Below are positions 3,283 to 33,176 of a DNA stretch of 64,000 nucleotides, piece after piece. The stretch spans positions 1-64,000 of IMG/VR virus record IMGVR_UViG_3300045049_000056. One strand, written 5' to 3'. The notes below the pieces were generated by a model that worked only from the letters and a program-made list of their open reading frames with translations, did no database searches and was not told where the DNA came from. This DNA comes from a virus (lineage: Duplodnaviria; Heunggongvirae; Uroviricota; Caudoviricetes). How positions within the stretch are numbered: position 1 is the stretch's first letter; each line of letters opens with the position of its first letter. A program made the position numbers and the translations under genes.

Positions 3283-3472
3283 AGTGATGCTCCTATATAG
3301 TGTTTGATTTCGTTAGATATGTTTGACAACTTCGACAGTGCTGCATCTCTTGCTTGCCTTCGCTGTGTTGCTGTCGATGTGGTCACTTTATCGCGTTCTA
3401 AACCACACGTCAACAAAAATTTTCATGAATCAGACAATTCCTACTATCTTTCTGTTCTGAATCATGGTAGGC

Positions 3473-3484
3473 GTGAATTTTCAC
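3473..3484. repeat. perfect 12-bp palindrome GTGAATTTTCAC
   Basis: Read directly in the noncoding island. Confidence 0.6.
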
Positions 3485-3488
3485 CCAC

Positions 3489-3510
3489 CTACTGTGCATA
3501 TAGACAGTAG
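3489..3510. repeat. inverted repeat CTACTGT-N8-ACAGTAG
   Basis: 7-bp arms read directly. Confidence 0.6.
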
Positions 3511-3666
3511 TTCAATTGACGTTCAGATACATATGTCAGACGACTCTTACAACGCAGCGTGAGAATCTTTCAAATCTCACCAATATTTGCTGTACAGACT
3601 GAAAATATCGGCGTATCTTGAACACATTGTCACTGTAACGAGATTGTAATTCTTACGCTTTCTCTC

Positions 3667-3683
3667 TTATGTGCGGCACATAA
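3667..3683. repeat. perfect 17-bp palindrome TTATGTGCGGCACATAA, with TTATGTGA half-site repeated ~20 nt downstream
   Basis: 8-bp arms around a single central nt. Candidate operator or origin element. Confidence 0.6.
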
Positions 3684-3989
3684 CAGATCATTGTTATGTG
3701 AGCCCTATCAAACCTACTAGGTAGAGCACACAAAGATAGGCGTAGGATGGAATGTGGGTGAATAGTGTCGCCAAGCTTACAAACCCTCTGAATTGAGGGT
3801 AAGGGGAAGTATTGCCTGAAAGATGCAGCCTAAGAGGTAGCAGGGGAGAGCCATGCCCAAATTTGACGGACGAGGATTCCGAAGGGCGAAGCTTTGCCTG
3901 AACGGCTGGGGAAGGAGATGTAGAGGGGTGGTGCGCTAAAACGCACTTTTCAGAAGGCGTAATCTGGAAGAGTGCAGTAAGATGCACAA

Positions 3990-5685: not shown

Positions 5686-5951
5686 CACCCCTGAAACCAT
5701 GCAAAGTGGCCTGTGAAAACTGGTGGTGGAATCGTAAGCTGCAATTGTTTCTCAACGAGCGCTACGGTGTTAAATGGGGAATTCCCGGAGAGTTTAAACC
5801 TTTCAACACCCGTCGGCGTGGTGAGTTCTTGTTTATCGTGCAAAATCCTAACAATCTTACGTGGTGGTTCAATTGGGGCACGGAGCGGGATTTTGCCAAT
5901 GCAGACTTGCCAGAGTTCACAGCTAAGCAGCTTATTGAGGAGTTGTCTTGA
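5682..5951 (+). CDS. hypothetical Trp-rich protein (89 aa)
   Basis: ATGA-coupled ORF. Confidence 0.55.
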   Translation: MTPLKPCKVACENWWWNRKLQLFLNERYGVKWGIPGEFKPFNTRRRGEFLFIVQNPNNLTWWFNWGTERDFANADLPEFTAKQLIEELS

Positions 5952-6358
5952 GCACCGGCAACGCGCTTCTCCTCGCTCTCATGCTTGCCAGCAGCGCTCA
6001 AGCCAAGAACGCTGACGACATCTGCCTTCGTGCCATCACATACAAGGAAGCTGGCAATCAACCTACACGCGGTGTAGCTGCGGTGATTCAAACTGTGCGC
6101 AACAGAGCACGTAAGCGCAAGAAGAGTGTGTGCAGTGTTGTGAAAGAACCACACCAATTCTCTGCTTACAAGAAGGGTATGAATTTAAGAAGCGTAAGAA
6201 TTCCTAAAAAGTGGTTGCACAAGTTCTCAGAAGCTAGTAAGATGCGTCCTGTTGTAGCAAGTTGTGTAGAGTTTTATCACACGGTTGCTGTGAAGCCTGC
6301 ATGGAGCAAAGAGAGAAAGTTTGTTGGGAAGATTGCTTCGCATAAATTTTATTGTTAG
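5948..6358 (+). CDS. SleB-like cell-wall hydrolase (Hydrolase_2 family) with signal peptide
   Basis: Hydrophobic N-terminus ALLLALMLASSAQA. Motifs ICLRAITYKEAGNQP...GVAAVIQTVRNR...VV.EPHQFSAY...HKFY match the SleB domain consensus. Starts at TTG after GAGGAG. Confidence 0.6.
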   Translation: MSTGNALLLALMLASSAQAKNADDICLRAITYKEAGNQPTRGVAAVIQTVRNRARKRKKSVCSVVKEPHQFSAYKKGMNLRSVRIPKKWLHKFSEASKMRPVVASCVEFYHTVAVKPAWSKERKFVGKIASHKFYC

Positions 6359-6366
6359 GAGGGGTT

Positions 6367-6549
6367 ATGAAAGATTTAGTTTTGCTTATTTTTAGCACTA
6401 TGGTAGCAATGGTTGGTTATACGATTCACGGCAGCATTTTTTGGGCAGTTGTAGATTTTGTATTCTCGCCAATCGCAATCATCAAATGGCTTATTTGTCA
6501 CGAAATCACTTTTGCAATCATTCAACAGACGTTTGCGTTCTTGTTTTAG
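6367..6549 (+). CDS. small membrane protein (60 aa)
   Basis: AGGAGGGG RBS then ATG at 6367. Two hydrophobic segments. Confidence 0.5.
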   Translation: MKDLVLLIFSTMVAMVGYTIHGSIFWAVVDFVFSPIAIIKWLICHEITFAIIQQTFAFLF

Positions 6550-7695: not shown

Positions 7696-8003
7696 AGAAA
7701 ACTGTCGCAGTAAAAATCGAGAAGCAATACGAAATTGAGCTTCGTCCAGAGGTCTGCACACAAGAGTTTGTTAGTGAGTTTGAGAGCTACATGTGGGAGC
7801 TTGACGGTGACACTCTTGAAGAGAAACTGAATAATCTGTCTGCGTACGTTGGTCGGCAGATTGCACAGTATGATATGGATTTTGTGGAAGGTGTTGGCTC
7901 TGTATCTAGCAAATTTTCTTTGAAGCTTAAGGAAGATGCTGGGCACAAGATTGCTGCTGTGTACCAAGAAGTCTATGATGATGTTGAGACGGAGGTGGAA
8001 TGA
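7692..8003 (+). CDS. hypothetical protein (~103 aa)
   Basis: GGGAGG then GTG at 7692 (MKKTVAVKIEK). The track gives TTG 7680. Confidence 0.5.
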   Translation: MKKTVAVKIEKQYEIELRPEVCTQEFVSEFESYMWELDGDTLEEKLNNLSAYVGRQIAQYDMDFVEGVGSVSSKFSLKLKEDAGHKIAAVYQEVYDDVETEVE

Positions 8004-8221
8004 AAATATTCGTATGGCAACAAGTGAAAAATTGTACAGATAATTGGCATTCAGAAGGTGGTGTAGTTGTTGTGGCAGAAAATCTAGCCCGTGCTAAAGA
8101 GATCGCTGCACAAAAAGGTTGTATTATCGATGACGGCGAATGGCCCGATATGGTGTCTACGCTGTATGATTTTGAGTACGAAGAGAGGATTTTTATTATG
8201 CCGAATGCTGGCTGCTGCTGA
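8000..8221 (+). CDS. hypothetical protein (73 aa)
   Basis: GGAGGTGGA then ATG with ATGA overlap. Confidence 0.5.
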   Translation: MKIFVWQQVKNCTDNWHSEGGVVVVAENLARAKEIAAQKGCIIDDGEWPDMVSTLYDFEYEERIFIMPNAGCC

Positions 8222-8231
8222 GGAGAGTTAG

Positions 8232-9257
8232 ATGATCGAAGTATTTGGCAAAGGGTCTGTTGCACGCCTCTTGAAGGACAGTGAATCTCCTTCTGGGCAT
8301 CGCCTGACTACAATGGAAATTGAAGTGAGCCGTATTGTATGGTGCGAATTCCTCACACATGGAATGCTTGCACGTAACGCTCATAGTTCCCGTGCCATCC
8401 CGTTTGATAAGATGGTTGAGCAGCTTAAGGGAAAGCCTGTGCGCTTTGGGCAGGCTAATAAGGGCATGCAGGATAAGGGTGAAGAGTTTGATGCACCTGT
8501 TAAGGGACACAAATATGAACCTCGTTTTTACACTGACGACGGACAAGAATGGCACACCCCTCAACAAGCATGGGAACTCGCAAAACGAGATGCTATTAAA
8601 TGGTCGCGACGGTTCTACGAAGCTGGCTACCACAAACAAGTGTACAATCGTCTGACAGAGCCGTTCCAGATGATTAAAGCTGTTGTGTCGGCTACAGAGT
8701 GGGACAACTACTATTGGCTTCGTGATGATGTTGCTGCTGATCCTACGTTGCACGATCTGGCGTCTACTATGCGCAAGGCCCACGAGCAGAGTGTTCCGCA
8801 ACTGTTGCAGCCGGGCGAGTGGCATTTGCCTTATATTGAAGATTCCCGTGACAGTAACGGAAATATCATATACTGGATTGATGGCGAAAATGGCGATCCG
8901 CATGTTCTTACGCTTGAAGAAGCTATCAAAGTATCCTCTGCACGTACTGGCGCAGTAAGCTTCCGCAACACTGATTACAATCTTGAGCGCTCTCTTGGTG
9001 TGTACGAGCGTCTTGTTGGTGATGATCGTAAGCATGCTAGTGCTATGCAACATCAGGCAACTCCGATGCAAGAGTCAAAAGGAAAAATGTTTATCGACGA
9101 TGTGGACCAATGGGTGAATCATCCGTACAGCCCTCTTACGTGGGAACCCGGTATCAGTCATGCAGATCGTGATGGCAACTTGTGGAGTGCTCAGTTCTGC
9201 GGCTGGATCATGCACCGTAAGCTTATTTCGGGTGAGAATTACAAAGCTGCAAAATAG
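8232..9257 (+). CDS. hypothetical protein (341 aa), no family recognised
   Basis: Long ORF with a GAGGAG-like RBS. Confidence 0.6.
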   Translation: MIEVFGKGSVARLLKDSESPSGHRLTTMEIEVSRIVWCEFLTHGMLARNAHSSRAIPFDKMVEQLKGKPVRFGQANKGMQDKGEEFDAPVKGHKYEPRFYTDDGQEWHTPQQAWELAKRDAIKWSRRFYEAGYHKQVYNRLTEPFQMIKAVVSATEWDNYYWLRDDVAADPTLHDLASTMRKAHEQSVPQLLQPGEWHLPYIEDSRDSNGNIIYWIDGENGDPHVLTLEEAIKVSSARTGAVSFRNTDYNLERSLGVYERLVGDDRKHASAMQHQATPMQESKGKMFIDDVDQWVNHPYSPLTWEPGISHADRDGNLWSAQFCGWIMHRKLISGENYKAAK

Positions 9258-9260
9258 TTG

Positions 9261-9290
9261 TTGACAAGCTTGCTCAACCTCTGCCATACT
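9261..9290 (+). promoter_or_regulatory. promoter, class B-like (TTGACAAGCTTGCT-N-CATACT)
   Basis: TTGACA 9261-9266, 18-nt spacer, CATACT 9285-9290, upstream of gene 9344. Confidence 0.4.
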
Positions 9291-9343
9291 ACGCCTGCGC
9301 TGAACAACAGCGCTTCTACAAACAACACAAGAAAGGTAATACA

Positions 9344-9676
9344 ATGAAGAAAATTATCTCCGCACTGGTCATGTCCCTGATGGCTTCGGCAGCATTTGCA
9401 CAAGCTGGCTATCCTGTCTCCGCTACGGCTGTTGCTACGGATGACGTGTCGGCTCCGTCTGTGCAAGCTGACGACGTTTCGTCCCCGTACATTGCTGCGA
9501 GTGTGGGAACGCCCAATTGCTGCGCGGTGTCTGTTTCGGCAAATGCTTTGGCAGGTCGTGTCTCGATTCCGCAAAAGGAAGACGACTCGGACAGCTTTGC
9601 AATGGCTGGCTTGGGCTTCGGCCTGTTTGGTTTGGTGGGCGTGAGCAAGCTGGCTCGTCGGAAGAAACAGAAGTAA
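9344..9676 (+). CDS. secreted protein with GlyGly-CTERM-like C-terminal anchor (110 aa)
   Basis: Signal peptide MKKIISALVMSLMASAAFA|QA. Internal DDVSxPS repeats. C-terminus AMAGLGFGLFGLVGVSKLARRKKQK is a Gly-rich hydrophobic helix with a basic tail. Confidence 0.6.
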   Translation: MKKIISALVMSLMASAAFAQAGYPVSATAVATDDVSAPSVQADDVSSPYIAASVGTPNCCAVSVSANALAGRVSIPQKEDDSDSFAMAGLGFGLFGLVGVSKLARRKKQK

Positions 9677-9684
9677 TTTGTAGA

Positions 9685-9708
9685 GGGGCGCCGAAAGGCG
9701 CTCTTTCG
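9685..9708 (+). terminator. putative terminator hairpin (GCGCC-GAAA-GGCGC) + UCUUUCG
   Basis: Directly after the stop of gene 9344..9676. Confidence 0.4.
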
Positions 9709-9727
9709 ATTAACTAAGGAGAGAGAA

Positions 9728-10069
9728 ATGAAACGTAGCATTGCACGGAAATGGGCTGCTGCACTAGCCAGTGGGGAGTACAAGCAAGGATTTGGTCAGC
9801 TTCGTAAAGGTGACAAATTTTGTGCACTTGGTACACTCTGTAATTTGCATGCACAAGAGCATCCTGAGGTTGCGGCAAAAGAGAAAGTAAAATCGCGCTA
9901 TCTTGGAGAAGAAACCATGTTGCCAACCCAAGTGGTGGAATGGGCAGGCATGAACTCTTCGGACGGTAAAATCAACTGGCGAGCGAGCATCATTGATCTG
10001 AATGACGAAGATAAAATGTCGTTTCCAGAGATTGCGAAAGTCATTAGAAACTGCTGGAAAGAACTGTAA
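9728..10069 (+). CDS. hypothetical protein (113 aa)
   Basis: AAGGAGAGAGAA then ATG. Confidence 0.55.
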   Translation: MKRSIARKWAAALASGEYKQGFGQLRKGDKFCALGTLCNLHAQEHPEVAAKEKVKSRYLGEETMLPTQVVEWAGMNSSDGKINWRASIIDLNDEDKMSFPEIAKVIRNCWKEL

Positions 10070-10083
10070 TTTAAGGAGAAATT

Positions 10084-10965
10084 ATGAACTATCAAATCAA
10101 CCCGAAATACATTAAATACGGCGCTGTAGGCGTTCTGGCGCTTATCCTCGCATCTTGTGCAAATCCATTCCACTCTGTACCTACCGGCTCCCGTGGTGTT
10201 GTCACTTCCTTTGGCAAGATTTCCGGTATTGAAGATGAGGGTCTTGTTGTTCTGCCTCCGTGGAAGAAACTCACCATTTTCAACATCCGTGCTGAGAAAG
10301 CTGACATTGAGAACGCGGAAGGTAGCACGAGCGATCAACAACCTGTCAAGGTGAGCATGACTGTGCGTTACAGCGTCGCTACCAACAAAGTTAGCGAAGT
10401 GTACGAGAAATATTCTCACGATGGCGATCTGTCAAGCTACGTTCAGACGGCCACACAAGAAGTGTTCAAGGCTGTTACGGCTCAATACTCTGCACCTGAT
10501 CTGATTATGCAGCGTGCCAAGGTTAGTGGTGATATTCGTAATCTGCTGGCCAAAAAGCTTGACATGTACGGTGCACAGGTTATCTCGATTGATATGCGTA
10601 GTTTCTCGTTCAGTCCCTCGTACATGGCAGCCATCAATGAGAAAGTTACGCAAGAGCAGCTTCGCCAAGGCGCTGAGAACAAGCTGAAAACTGTTGAGGC
10701 TGAGCAGAAGCAGAAAGTGGCAATTGCTGAGGCTGAAGCTAGTGCACAGAAGGTTCGTGCTGATGGACAGGCATATGCCACTACCAAGGCTGCACAGGCT
10801 GAAGCTGATAGCATCCGTGTGAAGGCACAAGCTCTTGCACAAAACAAGGATATGCTAGAACTGCGTCGTATCGAAGTAGAGCAAACTCGTGCAAGCCGTT
10901 GGGACGGTAAGCTTCCTACGTCGGTGTACGGTAGCGCACCTGTTCCGTTTATGAATGTAAAATGA
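10084..10965 (+). CDS. SPFH/Band-7 (prohibitin/HflK-like) domain lipoprotein (293 aa)
   Basis: Lipobox LILASC. Beta-rich SPFH-like core followed by a long Ala/Glu/Gln-rich coiled coil (QEQLRQGAENKLKTVEAEQKQKVAIAEAEA...), typical of HflK/C or YqiK. Confidence 0.55.
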   Translation: MNYQINPKYIKYGAVGVLALILASCANPFHSVPTGSRGVVTSFGKISGIEDEGLVVLPPWKKLTIFNIRAEKADIENAEGSTSDQQPVKVSMTVRYSVATNKVSEVYEKYSHDGDLSSYVQTATQEVFKAVTAQYSAPDLIMQRAKVSGDIRNLLAKKLDMYGAQVISIDMRSFSFSPSYMAAINEKVTQEQLRQGAENKLKTVEAEQKQKVAIAEAEASAQKVRADGQAYATTKAAQAEADSIRVKAQALAQNKDMLELRRIEVEQTRASRWDGKLPTSVYGSAPVPFMNVK

Positions 10966-11150
10966 TCCATTGGCCCGTTCTCCCTTTCAAGCCTACGCAC
11001 AAGGTTATTGTTGAGAACAATGAGCACGAATACAAAGCAGGGACGATTGTGCAGCATTTGTATTCAAGTGGCTTGACAGAATATGCTTGGTACACTGACG
11101 AAGAGGGTTGGATGCAGATTATGGATTCTACTGAATTGGAGGTGTTATGA
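10962..11150 (+). CDS. hypothetical protein (62 aa)
   Basis: ATGA-coupled to the SPFH gene. Confidence 0.5.
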   Translation: MIHWPVLPFKPTHKVIVENNEHEYKAGTIVQHLYSSGLTEYAWYTDEEGWMQIMDSTELEVL

Positions 11151-11374
11151 CTAATTTTCTTTTTGCGTTTATGGCGCTTACTGTAGTGTGGGGTATCATC
11201 GGTATGATTCGTGTTGATATTGTGTACAACCATCTAAAGCGACGAATCAAAGAGGTGTACTCTTCCAAAAACTGGCACAAGTATGAAATTGACATTCCCG
11301 GCACTTACAACTTGGCGCTGTGGGACTACCGCAAGTGGACGTACAAGCAATTCTTTCCAGAGGACGTGAAATGA
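11147..11374 (+). CDS. small membrane protein (75 aa)
   Basis: N-terminal TM helix FLFAFMALTVVWGIIGMI. Confidence 0.5.
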   Translation: MTNFLFAFMALTVVWGIIGMIRVDIVYNHLKRRIKEVYSSKNWHKYEIDIPGTYNLALWDYRKWTYKQFFPEDVK

Positions 11375-11550
11375 TATTTTTCTTACTGTTTTGGTTGGTT
11401 TCGGCAGGCTTGACATTGCTTATAATTGCTAAGATTGAGAAATGTATTACTTTGTTTGACGTAGGGATGTCGCTTCTGTGTGGTCCAATTGCAACTATTC
11501 CTGCGTTCTTTCAGTTTGGCCACGAGATCAACCTTTGGACAAAGAAATGA
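11371..11550 (+). CDS. small membrane protein (59 aa)
   Basis: ATG at 11371 (MIFFLLFWLVSAGLTLLII...). The track ORF 11320.. is an upstream extension. Confidence 0.45.
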   Translation: MIFFLLFWLVSAGLTLLIIAKIEKCITLFDVGMSLLCGPIATIPAFFQFGHEINLWTKK

Positions 11551-11720
11551 AAACAATCTTGTTAGCAATCTTAGGAGCGCTGCTCGGCTTTCTTGCTGGA
11601 GCGTTCTACAGTGTCAGCTTTGATATTTCAACATGGACTGAAAGCACTAGGTTCATGACGTTGCTGTTTATGTTCGGTGCCGGGTGTTTTGGCGTTGTTG
11701 TAGGGGAGTCAGTAGCATGA
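11547..11720 (+). CDS. small membrane protein (57 aa)
   Basis: ATGA overlap. Two hydrophobic helices. Confidence 0.45.
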   Translation: MKTILLAILGALLGFLAGAFYSVSFDISTWTESTRFMTLLFMFGAGCFGVVVGESVA

Positions 11721-11858
11721 AACAAACATTCTACGACCTAATCACATATCTTGAGCAGAACGAAGACAGCTTTCACTTCGATGGACAATTCGATATGGAA
11801 TCATTGGCTTCCGAGATTCTTGCTTTTGCTAGCGAGTTTGAGAAGCAATTTAATTAAG
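11718..11858 (+). CDS. small acidic protein (46 aa)
   Basis: ATGA overlap. Below the track's size cutoff. Fills the gap before 11867. Confidence 0.35.
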
Positions 11859-11866
11859 GAGAAATA

Positions 11867-12472
11867 ATGCCAACAGGATACACAGCGGTTCTGAACGAAC
11901 GCGACACCACGTTTCAAGAGTTCGCTTTACGTTGTGCGCGCGCATTCGGCGCACTGGTTCATATGCGCGACGACAAATTAGATGCAGAACTTCGTGAAGA
12001 TGTTGTAAGCCCGTTTTACGAAGAACGTTTGAAAGAGGCTAAGAGTAATCTTGCGACGTTTAGTATGTTGTCTGTCGATGTCGCACAGAAATTAATGTAT
12101 GATGAAAAGCTTGTACAGCATAAGCGTGCTCTAGAACGAATCGCTGAACTGAATGTTGTGAAGGGTCGCTACGAGCAAATGCGTCAAGAAGTGGAAGATT
12201 GGGTTGTTCCTACGAGCGAGCACAAGGCGCTTAAGAGTTTTATGTTGGACCAACTTGATATGTGCAAGTCTGATTACGACATTTCTTATTACGAAGAAAG
12301 TGCGAATGCTCCTGCATACCCCACAGAAGGTGAAGCGTTCAAGTGGCTTAATGAGCAAATCAAGAAGCATTCTTCTGATGTTGCGTACTATGGGAAACAG
12401 TACTCAGAAGAGGTTGAGCGTGTTAGCAAGCGTAACGAGTGGGTTAAACAGCTTCAGGAATCTTTGCAATGA
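11867..12472 (+). CDS. hypothetical protein (201 aa)
   Basis: AAGGAGAAATA then ATG. Confidence 0.6.
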   Translation: MPTGYTAVLNERDTTFQEFALRCARAFGALVHMRDDKLDAELREDVVSPFYEERLKEAKSNLATFSMLSVDVAQKLMYDEKLVQHKRALERIAELNVVKGRYEQMRQEVEDWVVPTSEHKALKSFMLDQLDMCKSDYDISYYEESANAPAYPTEGEAFKWLNEQIKKHSSDVAYYGKQYSEEVERVSKRNEWVKQLQESLQ

Positions 12473-12678
12473 GCATCACGGACAAGATTGAGCAACAATG
12501 GCTTAGCTACGTAGGCGAAACAGGACGAATGCCAAAGTATCTATTCTTAGGCTTCATTGATATGACCGACCTTGATAAGAAGCTAGGTATGGTGACGTTT
12601 AGATACAAAGAGATGGATGTTGTAGGCGTGGAGCGTGAGCGGCATGTGAGTGTTGGTGACAAGTATGCGGAGGTGTGA
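12469..12678 (+). CDS. hypothetical protein (69 aa)
   Basis: ATGA overlap. Confidence 0.5.
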   Translation: MSITDKIEQQWLSYVGETGRMPKYLFLGFIDMTDLDKKLGMVTFRYKEMDVVGVERERHVSVGDKYAEV

Positions 12679-12854
12679 TGAATCTTATTGATTTGCACGT
12701 TGTAGAAGTGATTGGCGAGCCTTACGAAGCTTATGGCAAATACTGGGTGAAAGTGCTGGCCAATGGAGAGGGCCATATTGCTCCGGGCACTGTCATGTGC
12801 AATTCGCTGGAAGATGCTCAGAAGGTGAAGCCGGGATATGTTTTTCAGGGGTGA
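12678..12854 (+). CDS. small protein (58 aa)
   Basis: GGAGGTG then ATG, overlapping the upstream TGA. Fills the gap before the primase. Confidence 0.4.
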   Translation: MNLIDLHVVEVIGEPYEAYGKYWVKVLANGEGHIAPGTVMCNSLEDAQKVKPGYVFQG

Positions 12855-12857
12855 GGG

Positions 12858-14582
12858 ATGGCAGAATTCGTCATTGGGAAAAATGCGTGCCCTTTTACAG
12901 GGTGCGGTTCCAGCGATGGCTTCCATTGGTACGGCGAAGGGAATGGGGGCTATTGCTACAGTTGTAACAAGAGCATTCTTTCCGATGAGCGTAAGGCAGA
13001 ATTAGGATTGGATGCTGAAGATGATTATGAGGAGGAAGTTGTGACTAGGGAGAAAATCACTCCAGAGGAAAACGAGCGCATCAAGGCCCGCACTGGCACT
13101 GATGGCAAGGGATATCGTGGTATCACTAAGGAGATTAACACTTTCTTTGGTGTACGTTATGAGTATGACGAAGCTACCGGCGAGCCAATTAAGCAATACG
13201 TGCCGACTACGATTAATGGGGAACTGTGTGGTTATCGCACACGCAAGTTTCCTAAAGACTTTTCGCACCCGATTGGTCAAGTTGGTAAAGAGTGTGATAT
13301 GGTGTTTCAGTTCCGCTTTAAGACGCACACCAAGACTTGTATTATCAGCGGTGGCGAGACTAAGGCTCTTAACACTTACCGCATGTTGTACGAGCATCAG
13401 GTTGCCCGTGGTAAGACGGATTACGAGACAGTAGCGGTTGTGTGCTCCACGTTGGGAGAAAGCGGGGCGCACAAACAAGTGCAGGCGCAATACGCATTTT
13501 TTGAGCAGTTCGACCGGGTTCTGGTTTGCATGGACCAAGATGAAGCGGGCATCAAAGCAACTGAAGAGATAGTTAAGGTTCTTCCCAAGGGTAAAGCTTG
13601 GGTTCTTAAGATGCGTTATAAAGACGCTGATGAATATGTTGAAAAGGGTAAGCAACAAGAATTCATCAACGACTACTACGCGGCTAAGAAGTATGTTCCA
13701 CACGGTGTGACAGCAAGTACGGATATTAGTGAGAAGATGCGAGAGTTCTTGATGAAGCCTCGCCTATCTTTCCCGCCTTATCTCCACAAACTCCAAAAGA
13801 AGCTGCGGGGAGGTTTGCCGGTTTGCATTTTCAATATTCTTAGTGCTTCAGGTACAGGCAAAAGTACCCACGTCGATGCTATGACACTGCATTGGATCAT
13901 GAACGAGAATAAGCTTGTAGGCATCGTTCCCATGGAAACTTGCGAAGGCGAGTACGGTGTAAACCTCTTATCTTCGTATGCTGAAGTTAAGATGAATCTT
14001 TTCGAGACAGTAGATGAGCGCTTGGCATTTATTGACAGGGAAGATACGAAAGCCTTGGAACGCGAACTCTTCTACAAGGAAGACGGCAACCCACGTTTCT
14101 ACATTCTTGATGCGGAGGCTGAAACTTTAAAGGATCGCGTCGAGTACCTTATCGTCAGCCTTGAGTGTAAGATTATTATCATTGATCCTATTCAAGACGT
14201 GTTCGACATGCTAGGTGAAGATGAACAAGCTAAGTTCATGGGATGGATGAAAGGTTGGATGAAGAAGGGCATTACCTTTGTCAACGTTAACCATTCCCGT
14301 AAGTCGGGACAAGGGCAGAAAGCTAACAGTAAAGGTGCAGACCTGTCAGAAGAGGATATGATGGGCCACAGCAGTATCTTCAAGAGTGGTGGCGTAAATC
14401 TAATTCTTATGCGAAACAAAGAAGCGGAAGATGAGGTTGAGAAGAATACCACGTTTATGAAGCTTACGAAGGCACGAGGAGTAGGTGACACAGGTATTGT
14501 TGGAAAGTATTACTACGAGATGGAAAAGCACAAGATTCATGACCTTGATGACTGGCTTACCGCTAACCCTCAGCATTTCTAA
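12858..14582 (+). CDS. T7 gp4-like bifunctional primase-helicase
   Basis: N-terminal zinc-binding domain CPFTGCGSSDG...YCYSC. TOPRIM-like region ISGGETKALN...CMDQDEAGIKATEEIVKVLPKGKAWV. Walker A SASGTGKST. Confidence 0.9.
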   Translation: MAEFVIGKNACPFTGCGSSDGFHWYGEGNGGYCYSCNKSILSDERKAELGLDAEDDYEEEVVTREKITPEENERIKARTGTDGKGYRGITKEINTFFGVRYEYDEATGEPIKQYVPTTINGELCGYRTRKFPKDFSHPIGQVGKECDMVFQFRFKTHTKTCIISGGETKALNTYRMLYEHQVARGKTDYETVAVVCSTLGESGAHKQVQAQYAFFEQFDRVLVCMDQDEAGIKATEEIVKVLPKGKAWVLKMRYKDADEYVEKGKQQEFINDYYAAKKYVPHGVTASTDISEKMREFLMKPRLSFPPYLHKLQKKLRGGLPVCIFNILSASGTGKSTHVDAMTLHWIMNENKLVGIVPMETCEGEYGVNLLSSYAEVKMNLFETVDERLAFIDREDTKALERELFYKEDGNPRFYILDAEAETLKDRVEYLIVSLECKIIIIDPIQDVFDMLGEDEQAKFMGWMKGWMKKGITFVNVNHSRKSGQGQKANSKGADLSEEDMMGHSSIFKSGGVNLILMRNKEAEDEVEKNTTFMKLTKARGVGDTGIVGKYYYEMEKHKIHDLDDWLTANPQHF

Positions 14583-14636: not shown

Positions 14637-14828
14637 ATGAGTTTTGATTATCAGAATAGTACTCTTGAAGAGTTGGCAGAGTACATTGAAACCGCAACGC
14701 CTCAAGTTATTTCCACCATGATTCGCTACTACGCCAACAAGGGTAATGTGGATATGGAGAATAAGATTCGTACGGCCCGTAAGATTGTTGTAAAACGTCG
14801 AGCACTGGCCCGATTGGAGGATATGTAA
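14637..14828 (+). CDS. hypothetical protein (63 aa)
   Basis: AAGGAATAGTAAT then ATG. Confidence 0.5.
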   Translation: MSFDYQNSTLEELAEYIETATPQVISTMIRYYANKGNVDMENKIRTARKIVVKRRALARLEDM

Positions 14829-15445
14829 TGTCGGGTAAGAGTGCAGATAAATACGGGCAGGACTGGCATGCGAATTTCGTATATGACCCATCCAGCGCAA
14901 GCGGAATCGTTTGGAAGGTTGATAAATTTCGCGGCAACAGTAAATCGCCATACGTTTTTAGAAAAGCTGGAGAACAGGCCGGGAACTTATCAAAGACAGG
15001 GTACTGGACGGTTTCTTTGTATCACGGCAATGGAAGGTCATTACCGTATCAGGTGCACAGAATCATCTACGAAATGCATCATGGACCTATTACAGATAAC
15101 ACGTTAGTAATTGACCACATTGACGGGTGCAAAACTAATAACTGCATTGAAAATTTAAGGCTGGTGAAGCGTAGTGATAATACTCGTAACACAGTCAAGT
15201 ATTCTAACAACTCTACAGGTGTTGTCGGAGTGTATCTGGATGGTAAGAGTGACAAGAACGGCAATGTGTATTGGTACTATAAGGCGGCTTGCATGAATTT
15301 AGATGGTGGTCAGTCAACTAAAGCGTTCTCTATCAATAAATACGGCGAACAGGAAGCCTTCCGTCTAGCCTGCGAATACCGCGCCAAGATGATTGCAGAG
15401 CTAAACGAACAAGGTGCGGGCTACACTGAACGCCACGGCACCTAA
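14828..15445 (+). CDS. free-standing HNH (HNH_3) + AP2-domain homing endonuclease
   Basis: VIDHIDGCKTNNCIENLRLVKRSDNTRN is an HNH_3 signature. STGVVGVYLD...YWYYKA...FRLACEYRAKMIAEL is an AP2-like DNA-binding domain. Confidence 0.8.
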   Translation: MSGKSADKYGQDWHANFVYDPSSASGIVWKVDKFRGNSKSPYVFRKAGEQAGNLSKTGYWTVSLYHGNGRSLPYQVHRIIYEMHHGPITDNTLVIDHIDGCKTNNCIENLRLVKRSDNTRNTVKYSNNSTGVVGVYLDGKSDKNGNVYWYYKAACMNLDGGQSTKAFSINKYGEQEAFRLACEYRAKMIAELNEQGAGYTERHGT

Positions 15446-18115: not shown

Positions 18116-20056
18116 GTGGGTGTATTTGCAGCAGACATTGAAACTTCGGGACTACTGGAGCAGATGCAGAAGCAGGCCAATCCGAGGCTGCACAACATCT
18201 GCGCAATCGACATTGATTCACCCCTGACGATTCTTATCGAAGGGCACGAGCGGGACAAGGTGCAGGCGTTCTTGGACGAGGGCCACACCCTCATTATGCA
18301 CAATGGCAAGCTGTTCGATATGGAAGCTCTTAAGCTTCTTGGCTACGATGTGTCCAAAGTAAACCTTATTGATTCTTTGCCGCTTAGCTGGTATCTTGAG
18401 CCAAATCGCATGAAGCACGGCTTGGCAGAGTATGGCGAAGAATTTGGCGTACCGAAGCCTGAGATTGAGGATTGGGAAAACCAAACACAGGAAGAGTATA
18501 ACCATCGTGTGACAGAAGACTGCAAGATTCAGAAGAAGTTGTGGCAACGTCAAGTGGCGAAGTTGAATGTGTTGTATGGTAAAGAGCCTGATGCACACAA
18601 GAAGATTATCGCCTACCTGATGCAGAAGATGGAGGAGTTTCGACAGCAGCAGGAAAACCGCTGGAAGCTGGATGTAGAGGGTGCCATCAAGTTGCAGGAA
18701 GAACTTGAAGCAGCGATTATTGAGAAGACAGAGGCACTTCGTCAGGTGATGCCGAAGGTTGCTGAGTATGTTGTACGGAAACGTCCTAGTGCACCGTTTA
18801 AGAAGAATGGCGAGCTTTCTGAGGCTGGTAAACGTTGGAAGGAAGTGACGGAAGCTGCAGGGTTGCCATTTGAGCACAAGGAAGATATCAAAGTCGTAAA
18901 GGAATGGAAGGAAGGTAACCCCGCTTCGCATACACAGATTAAAGCTTGGCTAGATTCATTGGGTTGGGAGCCAATCACCTTCAAGTTTGTTCGCGGTGAG
19001 AATGGTGAGCCTGACAGGAATATTCCTCAGATCAATCTTAAGGGCGGTGAGATTTGCCAGAGCGTGAAAGACTTGATTCCTAAGTGTGCAGGTATCGAGC
19101 ACATTGCAGGCTTGGGTATCCTCAACCACCGTGTCAGTGTTGTGAAGGGGTTCCTGCGGGATCATATTGATGGTGAAGTGACGGCACGAATGCAGGGATT
19201 GACGAACACGCTTCGTTGCCAACATCGCGAAATTGTTAATCTGCCAAGCTTGCGGGTTAAGTACGGCGAAGAATTGCGTGGGCTGCTAATGGCACGACCC
19301 GGTACAAAGTTGCTTGGTAGCGATCTTAGCAGCCTCGAAGACAGACTCAAACATCATTTCCAGTGGAAGCTTGATCCAGAGTACGTCAAATCGCAAATGA
19401 CGAAGGGCTTCGACCCGCACAACACAATTGCTGTGATTGCAGGGCTGATGTCGCAGGAAGATGCCGATTGGTATGCACACTACAAAAGCCTGCCGGACAG
19501 TGAACATACTGCGGAGAATGATAAGAAGTTTAAGAGGATTGATGAAATTCGTGCTGTTGGTAAGTCCACTAACTATGCATGTCAGTATGGGGCTGGTGTC
19601 GCCACGATTGCTAGAACAGCTAAAGTGAATCAATCAGTGGCGAAAAAGCTGCACGCTGCTTATCACAAGATGAATTGGTCCATTGCAAAGATTGCTAGTA
19701 TGATGGTTGTCAAGAAAACTGACTTCGGTGATTGGCAGATCAATCCTATCAATAAGATGTGGTATTCGTTACGTTCGGATAAGGATCGATTTTCTACACT
19801 GATTCAAGGTACGGGGGCATACATTCTCGACTTGTGGCTGTTCCACGCGGAGAGGCTTGCAAGGCAGCGAGGATTGAATTGGAAACTGTTGGGGCAGATG
19901 CACGACGAGCTTATCGCAGAGGTGCCGATTGGTGAAGAAGAGGTTTACCGTGCGCTTGTGGCAGATGCGATGACGAAAGTGAATGAGCAGTTGAAACTAA
20001 ACCGAGAGCTTGCGTGCGACATCAAATTCGGCGATAGGTATAGTGACATCCACTAA
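18116..20056 (+). CDS. family A (T7-like) DNA polymerase with 3'-5' exonuclease domain
   Basis: Exo I AADIETSG. Exo II MHNGKLFD. Motif A GSDLSSLEDR. Motif B RAVGKSTNYACQYG. Motif C QMHDEL. GTG start after AAGGGAGG. Confidence 0.9.
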   Translation: MGVFAADIETSGLLEQMQKQANPRLHNICAIDIDSPLTILIEGHERDKVQAFLDEGHTLIMHNGKLFDMEALKLLGYDVSKVNLIDSLPLSWYLEPNRMKHGLAEYGEEFGVPKPEIEDWENQTQEEYNHRVTEDCKIQKKLWQRQVAKLNVLYGKEPDAHKKIIAYLMQKMEEFRQQQENRWKLDVEGAIKLQEELEAAIIEKTEALRQVMPKVAEYVVRKRPSAPFKKNGELSEAGKRWKEVTEAAGLPFEHKEDIKVVKEWKEGNPASHTQIKAWLDSLGWEPITFKFVRGENGEPDRNIPQINLKGGEICQSVKDLIPKCAGIEHIAGLGILNHRVSVVKGFLRDHIDGEVTARMQGLTNTLRCQHREIVNLPSLRVKYGEELRGLLMARPGTKLLGSDLSSLEDRLKHHFQWKLDPEYVKSQMTKGFDPHNTIAVIAGLMSQEDADWYAHYKSLPDSEHTAENDKKFKRIDEIRAVGKSTNYACQYGAGVATIARTAKVNQSVAKKLHAAYHKMNWSIAKIASMMVVKKTDFGDWQINPINKMWYSLRSDKDRFSTLIQGTGAYILDLWLFHAERLARQRGLNWKLLGQMHDELIAEVPIGEEEVYRALVADAMTKVNEQLKLNRELACDIKFGDRYSDIH

Positions 20057-29716: not shown

Positions 29717-29867
29717 AACTTCTTGCTTGGACAACACGATTTGTGAGTACGCCTACAAGTTAGGATACACACATATTGATTTTGACGAAGCTCTGTATAA
29801 GATTGTTGAGTCCGAGATGTACGGGTATGATTGGATTGAAGAAGGGAGTGTTGATGGCGCAAATTAA
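29703..29867 (+). CDS. small protein (54 aa)
   Basis: ATG at 29703. Overlaps the nrdA start by 14 nt. Weak RBS. Confidence 0.3.
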   Translation: MRVFETSCLDNTICEYAYKLGYTHIDFDEALYKIVESEMYGYDWIEEGSVDGAN

Positions 29868-32088
29868 GACGGTGAAGAAGCGGAATGGTGAAGTTGTTCC
29901 GTTCGATCCTGAAAAACTAACGCATTGGGCCAAATGGGCCGGTGATATTGGTGTCGATTGGTTTGCCATTGTTGGCGAGGCTTACAAGAAGTGCCCCGAC
30001 GAATGCACTACGAATGACCTTCAGAACGCAATGATTCAAGCATGCATGGATTTTGAAGATACTCCGCACATGTTGATGGCTGGCCGTTTATTGATGGGCG
30101 ACGTGTACAAACAGGCATTTGGTGGGCACAATAAGATTCCTACAGTGCCTCAAATGGCAGTTGCCATGATGACACTTGGTCTGTGGGAAAACATGGATTA
30201 CACGATTGATGAGCTTGACGAGGCCGAAGCATTCATCAACCACGACCGTGATCTTAATAGTGTTTACTCCGTTGTGAATCAAATCACCACTAAGTATGCT
30301 ATCAAGGATATTGAGACTAATCGTGTGTTGGAGTCGCCTGCGTTCGTGTGGATGCGTATGGCTCTTGGCGTGTGCAAAGAGGAGCCTCGTGAAACTCGTA
30401 TGCAGAGTGTCAAAGAGTATTACGAAGACTTTGCAACTGGGCGCATCAATGCACCTACACCGAACATTAACAATCTTGGAACTCCTAAGCGAAGCTATGC
30501 TTCTTGCTGCGTGTACAAGAGCAATGATGAGCTAGGTAGCCTTGCTGCTGGCGATCACATCGCTACTATTATGACGGCTGCTAGTGCTGGTATTGGTGGT
30601 ATGCTGATGACTCGCAGCAAAGGTGATGGCGTTCGTAAGAATACTATTCGCCACGGTGGCAAGCTGCCGTACTACAATGCTCAAGCGAGTGCCGTGAATG
30701 CTAACCTGCAAGGTGGTCGTGGTGGTGCGGAGACGATGCACTTCAATGCTCTGGACCCGGAGACGCCGCTGATTCAACGCATGCGACACCCAACCACTGT
30801 TGCATCGAAGGCAGAACGCCGTCTTGATTACAGCTTTGGTTTCCATCCTTTGCTTGCAGAGAAAGCAGCAAAGAACGAACAATGGATGCACATCAGCTAC
30901 AAAGCCAATCCTGACCTGTGGGAAGCTGCGTACCGTGCAGACGGAAGCTTTGAGAAGATGTACACCGAGCATGAGAATAGCAGCAAGCGTAAGAAGTTTG
31001 TGAGTGCTCGTGCAGTTGTGCTAGAGCACCTTCGCATGCAGGAAGAGACTGGTAGGATGTATGAACACAACACGTATGAAATGAATCGCCATACGCCGTT
31101 TAAAGACCCGATCTACAGTAGCAATTTGTGTCAAGAAATTGGCCTGCCAACCCAAGGGTATAAGGATGTTACCGAGTTATATCGGATGGATGACGATGTG
31201 CAGGGTGAGATTGGTTTGTGCAATCTTGGTGCAATTGTCGCTGGACGTGTAACGCCTGAGATGTATGAGGAAGTGGCGTATCGCACGCTGAAGATGGTGG
31301 ACAATGTTATCAGTATCATGGATTATCCGTTCCCACACCTGAAGTACACTGCGCAGGCTCGTCGTTCAGCAGGCATCGGCATTACCAATCTTGCTCATGA
31401 TATGGCAATGAAGGGGCTTCGTTACGATGCGGCTGAAGGTAAGGCGTACATGCACCGGCTTGCGGAGATGCATTCTTACTGGCTCCACAAGGCTTCTGTA
31501 CGGCTGGCCAAGGAGCGTGGTAAGTGCGATTGGTTCCACAAGACGAAGTATGCAGATGGTTGGCTGCCTATTGACACGTATTGCAAACACATCGATAATG
31601 TGACGGATCAACCCTTACTGTGCGATTGGGAAGGGCTGCGCAAGGAGATTGCTGAACATGGCATGCGCAACAGTGTCCTTGAAGCGTATATGCCTGTTGA
31701 GTCGAGCAGTATTGCTGGTAACACGACTAATAGCATTTATCCTGTTCGTGAACTTGTTGTTGTTAAAACGAGCGGTACGAATAAGAATGTGTTTCTTGCA
31801 CCAGATTTGGAAGAGTTGAAAGGTGCCTATCAGCTTGCTTGGACTGTGCCGCGTAAAGATATTACGGAGATGTACGGCATCTTCCAGAAGTTCTGCGGAC
31901 AGGCAATCAGTGCTGACCACTATCGTGCTTTTGCTGAAGGTGAGATTCCGAAGATTAGTGCCACGGAGATGTTTGAAGATTGGTTGTACAGAATTACGTG
32001 CGGCCTTAAGAGTGGCTACTACTCGAATACGAAAGCTGGTTTGACGTTGGAAGAAAGTGAAGCAGAATGTGAGGCTTGCAAACTATGA
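29854..32088 (+). CDS. nrdA: class I ribonucleotide reductase alpha subunit
   Basis: GAAGGGAG then ATG at 29854 (track TTG 29776). N-terminal ATP-cone VKKRNGEVVPFDPEKL. The body, including NLCQEIGLP and a C-terminal Cys pair, is of NrdA type. Confidence 0.85.
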   Translation: MAQIKTVKKRNGEVVPFDPEKLTHWAKWAGDIGVDWFAIVGEAYKKCPDECTTNDLQNAMIQACMDFEDTPHMLMAGRLLMGDVYKQAFGGHNKIPTVPQMAVAMMTLGLWENMDYTIDELDEAEAFINHDRDLNSVYSVVNQITTKYAIKDIETNRVLESPAFVWMRMALGVCKEEPRETRMQSVKEYYEDFATGRINAPTPNINNLGTPKRSYASCCVYKSNDELGSLAAGDHIATIMTAASAGIGGMLMTRSKGDGVRKNTIRHGGKLPYYNAQASAVNANLQGGRGGAETMHFNALDPETPLIQRMRHPTTVASKAERRLDYSFGFHPLLAEKAAKNEQWMHISYKANPDLWEAAYRADGSFEKMYTEHENSSKRKKFVSARAVVLEHLRMQEETGRMYEHNTYEMNRHTPFKDPIYSSNLCQEIGLPTQGYKDVTELYRMDDDVQGEIGLCNLGAIVAGRVTPEMYEEVAYRTLKMVDNVISIMDYPFPHLKYTAQARRSAGIGITNLAHDMAMKGLRYDAAEGKAYMHRLAEMHSYWLHKASVRLAKERGKCDWFHKTKYADGWLPIDTYCKHIDNVTDQPLLCDWEGLRKEIAEHGMRNSVLEAYMPVESSSIAGNTTNSIYPVRELVVVKTSGTNKNVFLAPDLEELKGAYQLAWTVPRKDITEMYGIFQKFCGQAISADHYRAFAEGEIPKISATEMFEDWLYRITCGLKSGYYSNTKAGLTLEESEAECEACKL

Positions 32089-33176
32089 GTGTATTTAATC
32101 AAGAGAATAACGAGTGGAAGACAGGTAAATATTCTCTATTTCTTGGGCAGGCTCCGGGACTGTACGACAGCATTAACGTAACGCACCCAACCCTGTTTAA
32201 GAAGTACAAGGAGCAGAAGCAGGCTGACTGGAGCGAGGATGAAATCGATCTGGAGCAATCTCGTATCGACATGCTGACGTGCCCTCCTGAGAGTCGTGAA
32301 CTGATGCTGGAGAATCTTGCCCTTCAGTGGGAAGCTGACTCGATTGCTGCGCGAAGCATTGCACCTTTATTTGCACCCTTCGTCACCAACAGCGAGTACT
32401 GGGCTGCGCTGCTGAAGATTAGCGAGATTGAAGTGCTACACGCTCTGACGTACTCAGAGATTGTTCGTGTTTGCATGGCTAATCCTAACGAAATCTTTGA
32501 GCGCATCATGAAGAATGACGAGATGACTGGTCGTATGGATACAGTGTCTCGGGCATTCAGTAATCTCTCAGATGCGGGGGCTCGATACAAGCTTGGAGAG
32601 ATTGACGAGGATGTTGCGTATGGCGTAGTAATGAGTGCCCTTGTTGCTCTGTACTGCTTAGAGCGCCTTCAGTTCATGGTGTCGTTTGCCGCGACGTTCG
32701 GTGTTGTTGAGACAGGCTACTTCCAAGGAATCGGAAAGCTCGTTCAAAAGATTATGCAGGACGAAAGGTATATTCATGCTGAAGTAGGCAAGTACGCTAT
32801 CAAGACTGAGCTTGCAACAGAACGTGGACAAGAATGGTTCTACTACAACAAAGGTATTGTGTTCAATACGCTTAAAGAAGTTGTTCGTGCAGAGTATGAC
32901 TGGAATGGTCACTTACACAGCAGCGGTCGCAAAGTTCCCGGCTTCACGCATCAGCTTGGTGTTGATTGGATCGACTACAACGCGCAGGAAGTGTATGAAC
33001 TGTTTGGCTTTGAGCCACCACGCAAGATTGTTAAGAATCCTCTGAAGTACATGGAGAATTGGCTTGATCTGAACAAAACTCAGAATGCCAATCAAGAAGG
33101 CGATCAAGCTAACTATCGCCTGAATATTATTGTTGACGATCTTGGAGACAAGATCATTGAATGGAGCTATCGATGA
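32085..33176 (+). CDS. nrdB: class I ribonucleotide reductase beta subunit
   Basis: ATGA overlap with nrdA. Di-iron/tyrosyl-radical helices (EVLHALTYSE..., FMVSFAATF...E..H...). Confidence 0.8.
   Translation: MSVFNQENNEWKTGKYSLFLGQAPGLYDSINVTHPTLFKKYKEQKQADWSEDEIDLEQSRIDMLTCPPESRELMLENLALQWEADSIAARSIAPLFAPFVTNSEYWAALLKISEIEVLHALTYSEIVRVCMANPNEIFERIMKNDEMTGRMDTVSRAFSNLSDAGARYKLGEIDEDVAYGVVMSALVALYCLERLQFMVSFAATFGVVETGYFQGIGKLVQKIMQDERYIHAEVGKYAIKTELATERGQEWFYYNKGIVFNTLKEVVRAEYDWNGHLHSSGRKVPGFTHQLGVDWIDYNAQEVYELFGFEPPRKIVKNPLKYMENWLDLNKTQNANQEGDQANYRLNIIVDDLGDKIIEWSYR

Follow-up and report, generated by a model that had tools for sequence, protein, structure and literature searches.

A predicted prohibitin-family SPFH gene of host type in the early region of an uncultured tailed phage

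Introduction

Why would a bacteriophage carry a gene for a membrane scaffold of prohibitin type, and does the product of such a gene act together with the tiny proteins encoded directly behind it? Both questions are raised by a locus within a 64,000-nucleotide stretch of DNA (positions 1 to 64,000 of the IMG/VR virus record IMGVR_UViG_3300045049_000056), referred to here as the window. The window was taken from an 88,355-bp metagenome contig of the Joint Genome Institute (JGI), which belongs to an uncultured tailed phage of ~88 kb. At this locus, a gene for a 293-amino-acid (aa) protein of the SPFH (Band 7) superfamily is followed by a string of short open reading frames (ORFs). The original prediction proposed that the 293-aa protein is a phage-encoded SPFH lipoprotein and that the small proteins behind it serve as its NfeD-type partners. 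It further suggested that such a set might manipulate the host membrane, aid superinfection exclusion or counter membrane-based abortive infection. The analysis described here yields an SPFH gene that is host-type, long resident in the phage, more conserved than the adjoining replication genes, dispensable within its phage clade and free of a fixed partner. These properties constrain what a phage SPFH gene may do, and no new kind of system is revealed by the locus.

SPFH proteins with the full-length architecture of prohibitins or HflK/C form large rings or cages on membranes, with some 16–26 subunits each. Within such cages, HflK/C enclose FtsH and prohibitins enclose m-AAA, both of which are AAA+ proteases.

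Phage SPFH genes have been noted since 2006, when SPFH ORFs were reported in T4-like phages (PMC1524935), and they are found in hundreds of very different phages. GenBank contains 324 phage records encoding SPFH homologues, all of them less than 33% identical to the window protein; examples are P1, the Alteromonas N4-like AD45 phages, Burkholderia phage CSP3, Rhizobium phages, and jumbo phages of Cronobacter, Erwinia, Yersinia and Serratia. The SPFH gene of CSP3 has been regarded as a moron (PMC10269572), an HflK/C-like SPFH protein encoded in a Pasteurella prophage island is a reported virulence factor (PMC9872710), and a paper from 2026 states that the reason for the presence of SPFH in phage 'remains unclear' (PMC13239085). 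No functional test of any phage SPFH gene was found in the literature searched. Since phage SPFH genes are already known, the addition made by the present locus is a modest one, and concerns the origin of the gene, the constraint acting on it, the switching of its membrane anchor and the lack of a fixed partner.

Results

Architecture of the SPFH protein

The 293-aa protein matched the Pfam family Band_7 (PF01145) over residues 31–209, with an E-value of 2.1e-30 and a score of 106.5 bits (cut-off 23.6), and this strong hidden Markov model match upholds the SPFH assignment of the original prediction. Its match in PHROG was phrog_200, named 'lipoprotein' (E 2.7e-50), and sequence searches of the PDB retrieved human prohibitin-2 (E 1.2e-16), prohibitin-1 and then E. 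coli HflK (E 6.6e-11). An AlphaFold2 model of the monomer, built with 41 homologues (predicted local distance difference test score, pLDDT, 72.5), shows a helix at residues 7–26, an alpha/beta region at residues 31–176 and two further helices at residues 178–253 and 255–272. Comparison of this model with the PDB using Foldseek gave 65 matches at E ≤ 1e-3, the best of which were the cage subunits of prohibitin, HflK/C, stomatin, erlin and QmcA. The alignments to prohibitin and HflK/C were near full length (257–300 columns), and the matched entries include 7WI3, 9CZ2 and 7VHQ (HflK/C), 8RRH and 9O9Z (prohibitin), and 8Z5G (QmcA). All the parts of a cage former are present: the anchor is located at the N-terminus and precedes the SPFH domain, after which come the long wall helix, the cap helix and a C-terminal tail that is conserved. 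The LASC lipobox, the SPFH core and the long helix of HflK/prohibitin type that had been proposed for this protein were all found at the positions given for them (Table 1).

The protein missed the NCBIfam equivalogs of HflK (TIGR01933, 50.6 bits for a cut-off of 159.4; NF008181, 42.5 bits for a cut-off of 660) and of HflC (TIGR01932, 32.5 bits for a cut-off of 134.4). Furthermore, the pairing of hflK with hflC was not observed, a single SPFH gene being present in the window, in the related loci and in the bacterial contexts inspected. The protein is thus prohibitin/HflK-like and no orthologue of HflK or HflC. Its identity and architecture are very probably those of a prohibitin-family SPFH protein.

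Relatives, origin and selection

Database searches retrieved 3166 homologous proteins at E ≤ 1e-10, named proteins of Collimonas and Pseudolysobacter among them. The eleven nearest, with 79–100% identity, all originate from uncultured phage contigs, and the window protein is itself one of the retrieved entries (P0001; 100% identity, same contig). The next tier, with 67–79% identity, consists of bacterial chromosomal genes from Burkholderiaceae, Oxalobacteraceae (Collimonas, Janthinobacterium, Duganella), Rhodocyclaceae, Caldimonas and Rhizobacter, and also from Nevskia, Steroidobacteraceae, Lysobacterales and a few Verrucomicrobia. In a collection holding one genome per species, relatives are encoded at at least 191 loci, mostly in Burkholderiales and Gammaproteobacteria. 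The orthologue stands alone amid ordinary chromosomal genes in each of three genomes inspected (Collimonas pratensis, Pseudolysobacter antarcticus and one other), in a neighbourhood that differs each time, and neither phage genes nor an NfeD gene were present near it in these three contexts. The possibility that the bacterial homologues are prophage genes is ruled out for the three contexts inspected, as no phage genes lie nearby.

The GC content at third codon positions (GC3) of the SPFH gene is 47%, as in the rest of the phage, whereas that of the bacterial copies is 71–78%. Compared with its clade homologues, the phage gene shows saturated synonymous divergence (dS 1.6–2.8) and a ratio of nonsynonymous to synonymous divergence (dN/dS) of 0.03–0.06. 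The phage-like GC3 and the saturated dS among phage copies rule out a recent capture from the host. Thus, the SPFH gene is of host type, has long been resident in the phage and is under very strong purifying selection.

Across the phage clade of the window (loci L001, L002, L033, L050, L052 and L053), the identity of the SPFH protein is 79–94%, while that of the primase is 21–43% (with the exception of L033, 81%) and that of thyX about 50%; SPFH is the best-conserved protein around the locus by a wide margin. The mean column identity of the SPFH alignment is 77%, and conservation as strong as this would be compatible with assembly into a cage. Just two diagnostic columns distinguish the clade from 109 other, largely bacterial homologues, namely the juxtamembrane residue N27 (Trp in the others) and V98 (Ile in the others). 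Consequently, the exported part of the phage protein is essentially the bacterial protein, kept intact, and variation in the phage protein is essentially limited to membrane anchoring.

Membrane anchor

The lipobox comprises residues L22-A-S-C25 (nt 10147–10158) and is preceded by an N-region with K8 and K11 and by a hydrophobic core at residues 12–21; it agrees with the pattern [LVI][ASTVI][GAS]C located ~15–30 residues from the start. Among the 120 closest homologues, a lipobox was found in just six (P0001, P0004–P0007 and P0009), all of which belong to the phage clade P0001–P0009. A seventh match to the pattern, 'AGGC', occurs in a protein from outside the clade and is doubtful. The remaining three of the nine clade members (P0002, P0003 and P0008) show Trp where the lipobox forms have Cys. 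Of the 109 other homologues, 107 have a Trp two residues downstream of this position, where the bacterial proteins show a Trp-Pro-Phe motif.

The codons TGT (Cys) and TGG (Trp) are a single base apart. In a neighbour-joining tree calculated without the anchor region, the lipobox and Trp forms are interleaved within the clade, and the anchor state must therefore have switched more than once. Either type of anchor, the signal-anchor helix with its Trp or the lipobox with its cleavage site, is apparently tolerated. Because the lipobox form needs export and the anchor toggles within one clade, we infer that the SPFH domain is probably situated on the exported, periplasmic side of the membrane in both forms, as it is in HflK/C and prohibitins. 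The predicted mature N-terminus of the lipobox form reads C-A-N, with Ala-Asn and no Asp at positions +2 and +3.

Small downstream genes

The SPFH gene opens a chain in which ATGA overlaps link it successively to ORFs of 62, 75, 59, 57 and 46 aa (s62, s75, s59, s57 and s46), the last of which ends at position 11857. The translational coupling to a 62-aa protein and three membrane proteins of 57–75 aa, as originally proposed, is thereby retained, but the chain is longer than had been assumed and holds five small ORFs. The same five proteins were called by the JGI gene caller, and for four of the five, tblastn detected homology at the protein level in sibling phages (E 1e-6 to 1e-29), so that most of these ORFs are conserved in related phages, as the earlier claim required. 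The single homologue of s59, a weak match of 68 aa encoded directly 3' of SPFH in L033, came from a phmmer search of a small set (E 6.5e-5). Given the JGI calls and the sibling homologues, the five small ORFs are real genes, beyond chance.

Kyte-Doolittle analysis indicated one membrane segment in s75, two each in s59 and s57, and none in s62 or s46. When the five small proteins were searched against Pfam at E ≤ 10, no NfeD match (PF01957) was obtained, just two unrelated weak matches to domains of unknown function, and NCBIfam gave no match for the small proteins. Likewise, none of the defence hidden Markov models of PADLOC-DB 2.0 matched the SPFH protein, the five small proteins or three neighbours at E ≤ 0.01.

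The s62 protein, which lacks a signal peptide and a membrane segment, is predicted to be cytoplasmic. Its homologues (49–55% identity) are encoded at five sibling loci devoid of SPFH; they surfaced via the s75 loci, a related-locus search with s62 only having been empty and a protein search with s62 having returned only itself. A single-sequence AlphaFold2 model of s62 (pLDDT 53) was too poor for a fold search, and a profile of the s62 homologues compared with the PDB at E ≤ 10 retrieved no NfeD chain. Residues 36–55, which bear the family motif (S/Y)G..EYAWY.D..G.WQ, resemble the first strands of the poly-ADP-ribose-binding WWE domain of RNF146; this match covers 20 residues in the last third of s62 (E 0.054) and is treated as unproven. 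A full WWE domain is ruled out, the matched part being too near the C-terminus. The name given to s62 by JGI, 'uncharacterized SAM-dependent methyltransferase', was not supported by the searches, and a chain of 62 aa is much too short to adopt such a fold.

The s75 protein represents a previously unnamed family; a search of 1.84 billion proteins retrieved 24 cluster representatives (E ≤ 1e-3). Its layout consists of a membrane helix, the stretch R-x-x-L-V-Y...R-R-I-D-E-I-Y and the conserved end D-(L/Y)-R-K-W-T-Y-K-Q-F-F-P-E. No relative of s75 was found in Pfam, PHROG or the PDB, where a profile search gave nothing meaningful. Members of the family occur in siblings that carry SPFH as well as in siblings that do not, and distant ones are located in unrelated contexts. 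A homologue of s57 (56% identity) is encoded in L067 and L068, both of which lack SPFH, and homologues of s46 (39–51% identity) in L002, L033, L054–L056, L065, L067 and L068.

Distribution of SPFH and the small genes in the phage clade

The phage clade of the window comprises 13 distinct loci, seven of which bear SPFH and six of which have no SPFH gene in the slot (Table 2). None of the six SPFH-less contigs was among the 50 SPFH viral loci found with the invariant motifs V[YF]EKYSH and KVTQEQL, and four of the six are 80–89 kb long, near full genome size. SPFH is thus an accessory gene within the clade.

The small genes follow a distribution of their own. The s62 gene is present at one of the seven SPFH-bearing loci versus five of the six SPFH-less loci, and s75 at three of seven versus six of six. 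The six other SPFH-bearing loci of the clade lack both s62 and s57, and three of them (L050, L052 and L053) lack any of the small genes, as do more than 40 further viral loci with SPFH. In IMG/VR, a small membrane ORF was found directly 3' of SPFH in 6 of 30 cases versus 8 of 99 further downstream; these six cases were collected across 43 IMG/VR loci, and three of them come from the clade of the window. These findings indicate that the small ORFs constitute an independent, mosaic early gene array, and it is very likely that none of them is a dedicated partner of SPFH.

In the SPFH-less siblings, the slot of SPFH directly 5' of s62 or s75 is occupied by lipoproteins of 74–78 aa with LTGC, LSGC or AAGC lipoboxes, which often overlap the start of the next gene. 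The up113 gene, located 5' of SPFH in the window, is found 3' of it in L052 (6331–6675) and L053 (7329–7706), and this difference in position points to local gene shuffling around SPFH.

Table 2. Gene order at the 13 loci of the phage clade and position of the lipoprotein genes in the SPFH slot
Locus	SPFH	Gene order	Lipoprotein genes in the slot
Window	present	up110, up113, SPFH, s62, s75, s59, s57, s46	
L033	present	up110, SPFH, s59-like, s46, primase	
L002	present	thyX, SPFH, s75, s46	
L001	present	thyX, SPFH, s75-like	
L052	present	thyX, SPFH, unrelated ORF, up113	
L053	present	thyX, SPFH, unrelated ORF, up113	
L050	present	primase, SPFH, 72 aa, PolA	
L067	absent	up110, up113, two small lipoproteins, s62, s75, s57, s46	
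L068	absent	up110, up113, two small lipoproteins, s62, s75, s57, s46	3340–3578 and about 3604–3813
L054	absent	up110, 78-aa lipoprotein, s62, s75, s46	
L055	absent	up110, 78-aa lipoprotein, s62, s75, s46	2607–2843
L056	absent	up110, 78-aa lipoprotein, s62, s75, s46	2562–2798
L065	absent	up110, 74-aa lipoprotein, s75, 90 aa, s46	3730–3954

Genome context

The early/replication block occupies the + strand from ~5 to 33 kb of the window, and the structural genes, encoding a 1860-aa tape measure, a major head protein, a portal and a large terminase, lie on the - strand beyond ~34 kb; the GC skew flips sign near 34 kb. These genes, together with those for a primase/helicase, a family A DNA polymerase (PolA) and a ribonucleotide reductase (RNR), corroborate that the element is phage-borne. 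The window contains no tRNA genes. Among cultured phages, the nearest large terminase is that of the Pseudomonas PAK_P-like phages, at best 42% identical, and the phage has no close cultured relative; a megablast search of positions 9300–12500 against GenBank phages gave no match. A scan of positions 7800–13200 for promoters and terminators found sites no commoner than in shuffled sequence.

Overlaps of 4 nt occur at 17 of the 48 gene junctions of the + strand module, and overlaps of any length at 27 of 48. Because such 4-nt overlaps are part of the common genome-wide packing, coupling by itself is no sign of a complex. The locus thereby offers a caution for other tightly packed phage genomes, in which translational coupling is poor evidence for a protein complex.

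A recurrent neighbourhood was observed in phages unrelated to that of the window. SPFH is located between thyX and a DNA ligase gene in Alteromonas AD45-P1 (L063), between dam and ban (DnaB helicase) in P1 (L061), and after DnaC and PagP in Burkholderia CSP3 (L062). Early or middle expression offers the simplest account of why SPFH recurs beside thyX or replication genes in phages that are not related to one another. The thymidylate-synthase-like ORF of the window (341 aa) matched phrog_85 with an E-value of 1.4e-73 and Pfam Thy1 with one of only 0.039, matches that suggest a ThyX which is divergent or extended.

Several further genes of the early block deserve description. The up110 protein shows a Sec-type signal peptide, DDVSAP/DDVSSP repeats, a Cys-Cys pair, and a C-terminal hydrophobic helix followed by an RRKKQK tail. 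Its C-terminus is laid out like the sorting signals of exosortase or rhombosortase (PEP-CTERM or GlyGly-CTERM type), and its sole family match, to NCBIfam WGxxGxxG, was weak (E 0.0054) and under the cut-off. At 5948–6358 (+), a 136-aa protein with an N-terminal signal peptide belongs to the Hydrolase_2 family of SleB/CwlJ-type cell-wall hydrolases (E 6.6e-11), and adjacent to it on the 3' side is a 60-aa ORF whose product has two hydrophobic helices; the two genes span 5948–6549 (+) on the early strand and may act as a pair, either in lysis or in early remodelling of the wall. Finally, a protein of homing-endonuclease type with HNH_3 and AP2 domains is encoded at 14828–15445 (+), 3' of the primase/helicase gene and separated from it by one 63-aa ORF.

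Table 1. Features of the window
Feature	Position	Strand	Description or basis
thyX-like thymidylate synthase	8232–9257	+	early/replication block
up110	9344–9676	+	secreted repeat protein; opens the conserved envelope-directed early array; 48–56% identity in siblings
up113	9728–10069	+	phrog_18067 protein; 5' of SPFH in the window
Shine-Dalgarno AAGGAG	10073–10078	+	5 nt 5' of the SPFH start codon; read from sequence
SPFH/Band 7 (prohibitin-family) protein	10084–10965	+	293 aa, ATG start; Pfam, PHROG, PDB, Foldseek, dN/dS
N-terminal membrane anchor or signal peptide	10084–10158	+	aa 1–25, ends in lipobox; sequence, predicted helix 7–26
SPFH domain	10174–10710	+	aa 31–209 (Pfam); alpha/beta core aa 31–176 (model)
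Long helical region	10615–10899	+	aa 178–253 and 255–272, ~95 residues in all; AlphaFold2; counterpart of the wall and cap helices in prohibitin and HflK/C cages
s62	10962–11150	+	62 aa, soluble, predicted beta-rich; ATGA overlap with SPFH stop
s75	11147–11374	+	75 aa, one N-terminal membrane helix; family alignment
s59	11371–11550	+	59 aa, two predicted membrane helices; hydropathy
s57	11547–11720	+	57 aa, two predicted Gly-rich membrane helices; hydropathy
s46	11717–11857	+	46 aa, acidic, soluble; fifth ATGA-coupled ORF, beyond the end (11720) of the original prediction
Primase/helicase	12858–14582	+	
Family A DNA polymerase (PolA)	18116–20056	+	
Ribonucleotide reductase (RNR)	29776–33176	+	

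Discussion

Proposed function

The best explanation overall, to which we assign a probability of about 0.5, is that the locus holds an accessory early phage gene for a host-type, cage-forming scaffold of the prohibitin family, tethered outside the cytoplasmic membrane. According to this proposal, the SPFH domain would be periplasmic, in line with HflK/C and prohibitins, and copies of the protein, with or without those of the host orthologue, would build a ring or cage that encloses part of the membrane. Such a cage could, by analogy with HflK/C and FtsH and with prohibitins and m-AAA, govern the access of a membrane protease or of other clients, and during infection the quality control of membrane proteins and the function of the membrane would be held in a state favourable to the phage. 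A role in proteolysis and quality control specifically, which is drawn from the same analogy, is a more tentative suggestion, and the protein may instead serve envelope remodelling or exclusion. With an exported part nearly identical to that of the host protein and an anchor that varies, it is also conceivable, if improbable, that the phage protein is a 'Trojan subunit' that co-assembles with the host cage and alters its tethering or gating; if so, it would release or trap clients of the cage, e.g. FtsH, during infection or, were it sorted to the outer membrane, bring an SPFH ring to a site from which no SPFH cage has been described.

Several observations weigh against the scaffold proposal. 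In E. coli, Asp at position +2 keeps lipoproteins in the inner membrane (the Lol rule), and by this rule the N-terminus C-A-N would direct the protein to the outer membrane, a location in which FtsH could not be caged. Lipoprotein sorting rules vary among proteobacteria, and the rule of E. coli may not be that of the host. In addition, the functional steps of the proposal, i.e. oligomer, client and topology, are argued by analogy, and the confidence of the monomer model is moderate (pLDDT 72.5; predicted template modelling score, pTM, 0.44). About half of the sibling phages manage without the SPFH gene, and a role common to phage SPFH genes is not evident, as SPFH stands beside an exclusion gene in PhiSH19 and in a lysis module in Kayvirus. 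Moreover, a 2026 study found the SPFH proteins of P. aeruginosa to be dispensable in laboratory conditions (PMC13086221), which makes a strong housekeeping benefit less certain.

Alternative explanations

The main rival regards the SPFH lipoprotein as an interchangeable cassette of an early envelope-directed cluster that serves superinfection exclusion or the masking or inactivation of receptors. This would fit the replacement of SPFH by lipoproteins of 74–78 aa (LTGC, LSGC) in the same slot of the SPFH-less siblings, an array in which many products are exported or membrane-bound (up110, s75, s59 and s57), and the confinement of the lipobox to the phage clade (six of nine members, with at most one doubtful pattern match elsewhere). 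It would also fit a mature N-terminus without the inner-membrane retention signal of E. coli, the annotated superinfection-exclusion gene that adjoins SPFH in PhiSH19, and a sporadic, accessory gene distribution of the kind typical of exclusion genes. However, with two diagnostic columns separating the phage protein from other homologues, a new receptor-blocking activity is not evident, and in three members of the clade the transmembrane anchor was either regained or never lost. Searches of Pfam, PHROG and PADLOC gave no match to families known from exclusion or defence, and the literature searched held no experiment tying SPFH to exclusion. On this evidence, we consider such a cassette rather unlikely. 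A different role, in which the SPFH protein times lysis by corralling holins, antiholins or spanins in the membrane, is suggested by the Kayvirus SPFH protein MbpS, encoded in the lysis module between the endolysin and a second lytic enzyme and beside a holin-like protein (PMC7150955), and by the holin-like size of the two-helix membrane proteins s59 and s57. Nevertheless, holins typically end in a charged C-terminal tail, which is missing from s57 and amounts to a very short basic stretch in s59, and siblings retain s57 without SPFH. The sole recognisable wall hydrolase, with its 60-aa membrane ORF, lies ~3.7 kb upstream with at least nine genes between, a position that rules out membership of SPFH in a lysis cassette, and SPFH is found among replication genes both here and in three unrelated phages. 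Control of lysis timing is therefore very unlikely.

The remaining explanation is the one originally put forward, namely that SPFH and the small proteins form one functional unit resembling the SPFH-NfeD pairs, in which the small proteins anchor the scaffold, regulate it or are themselves scaffolded. Five consecutive ATGA overlaps that tie six genes into one coupled string would agree with such a unit, as would the homologue of s75 directly 3' of SPFH in L001 and L002, the s59-like gene in the same position in L033, and the slightly higher frequency of small membrane ORFs directly after SPFH. Yet half of the six membrane-ORF cases stem from the window's own clade, and 4-nt overlaps are generic in this genome. 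The small-gene array is present in six siblings without SPFH, SPFH occurs without the small genes in L050, L052, L053 and over 40 other viral loci, and the bacterial orthologues were monocistronic in the three contexts inspected. The searches of the small proteins at E ≤ 10 yielded neither NfeD nor another family match, and s62 and s46 are predicted to be cytoplasmic while the SPFH domain is predicted to be periplasmic. In the absence of homology and of co-occurrence, and with a mismatched predicted topology, the analogy with SPFH-NfeD fails; the small proteins cannot be upheld as NfeD-type partners, and the unit, largely refuted by gene distribution, is highly improbable.

Comparison with known systems

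T5 Llp, Cor and T4 Imm/Sp are early phage lipoproteins or small membrane proteins that mediate superinfection exclusion. The locus resembles them in gene type and position, that is, in an early block with a lipoprotein, tiny membrane proteins and a patchy distribution; no sequence similarity to the window proteins was found with Pfam, PHROG and PADLOC. With the SPFH-NfeD operons (QmcA-YbbJ and the archaeal stomatin-STOPP), the locus shares an SPFH gene followed by a small translationally coupled gene, but in the window there is no NfeD homologue and the downstream genes assort independently of SPFH. Furthermore, QmcA faces the cytoplasm, whereas the window protein is predicted to be exported.

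The phage SPFH proteins of PHROG 200 belong to the same family and are often encoded within replication or nucleotide-metabolism blocks; they differ from the window protein in that the close relatives of the latter are bacterial chromosomal genes and genes of uncultured phage contigs. E. coli HflK/HflC, in complex with FtsH, are members of the same superfamily; their N-terminal anchor, periplasmic SPFH domain and long cage-forming helices have counterparts in the anchor, the SPFH domain, predicted to be periplasmic, and the long helices of the window protein. They are encoded by a gene pair and HflK has 419 aa, whereas the window protein is the 293-aa product of a single gene and scores far below the equivalog cut-offs. 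Eukaryotic prohibitin 1/2 and the bacterial 'prohibitin family protein' (COG0330) account for the best matches in the PDB by sequence (prohibitin-2) and by fold (8RRH, 9O9Z). In prohibitins, two paralogues join into hetero-oligomers and the anchor is usually an uncleaved helix, while the window holds one gene, phage-encoded and with a lipobox anchor; in length (~270–300 aa) and in the order of N-terminal anchor, SPFH domain, long helix and C-terminal tail, the two are alike.

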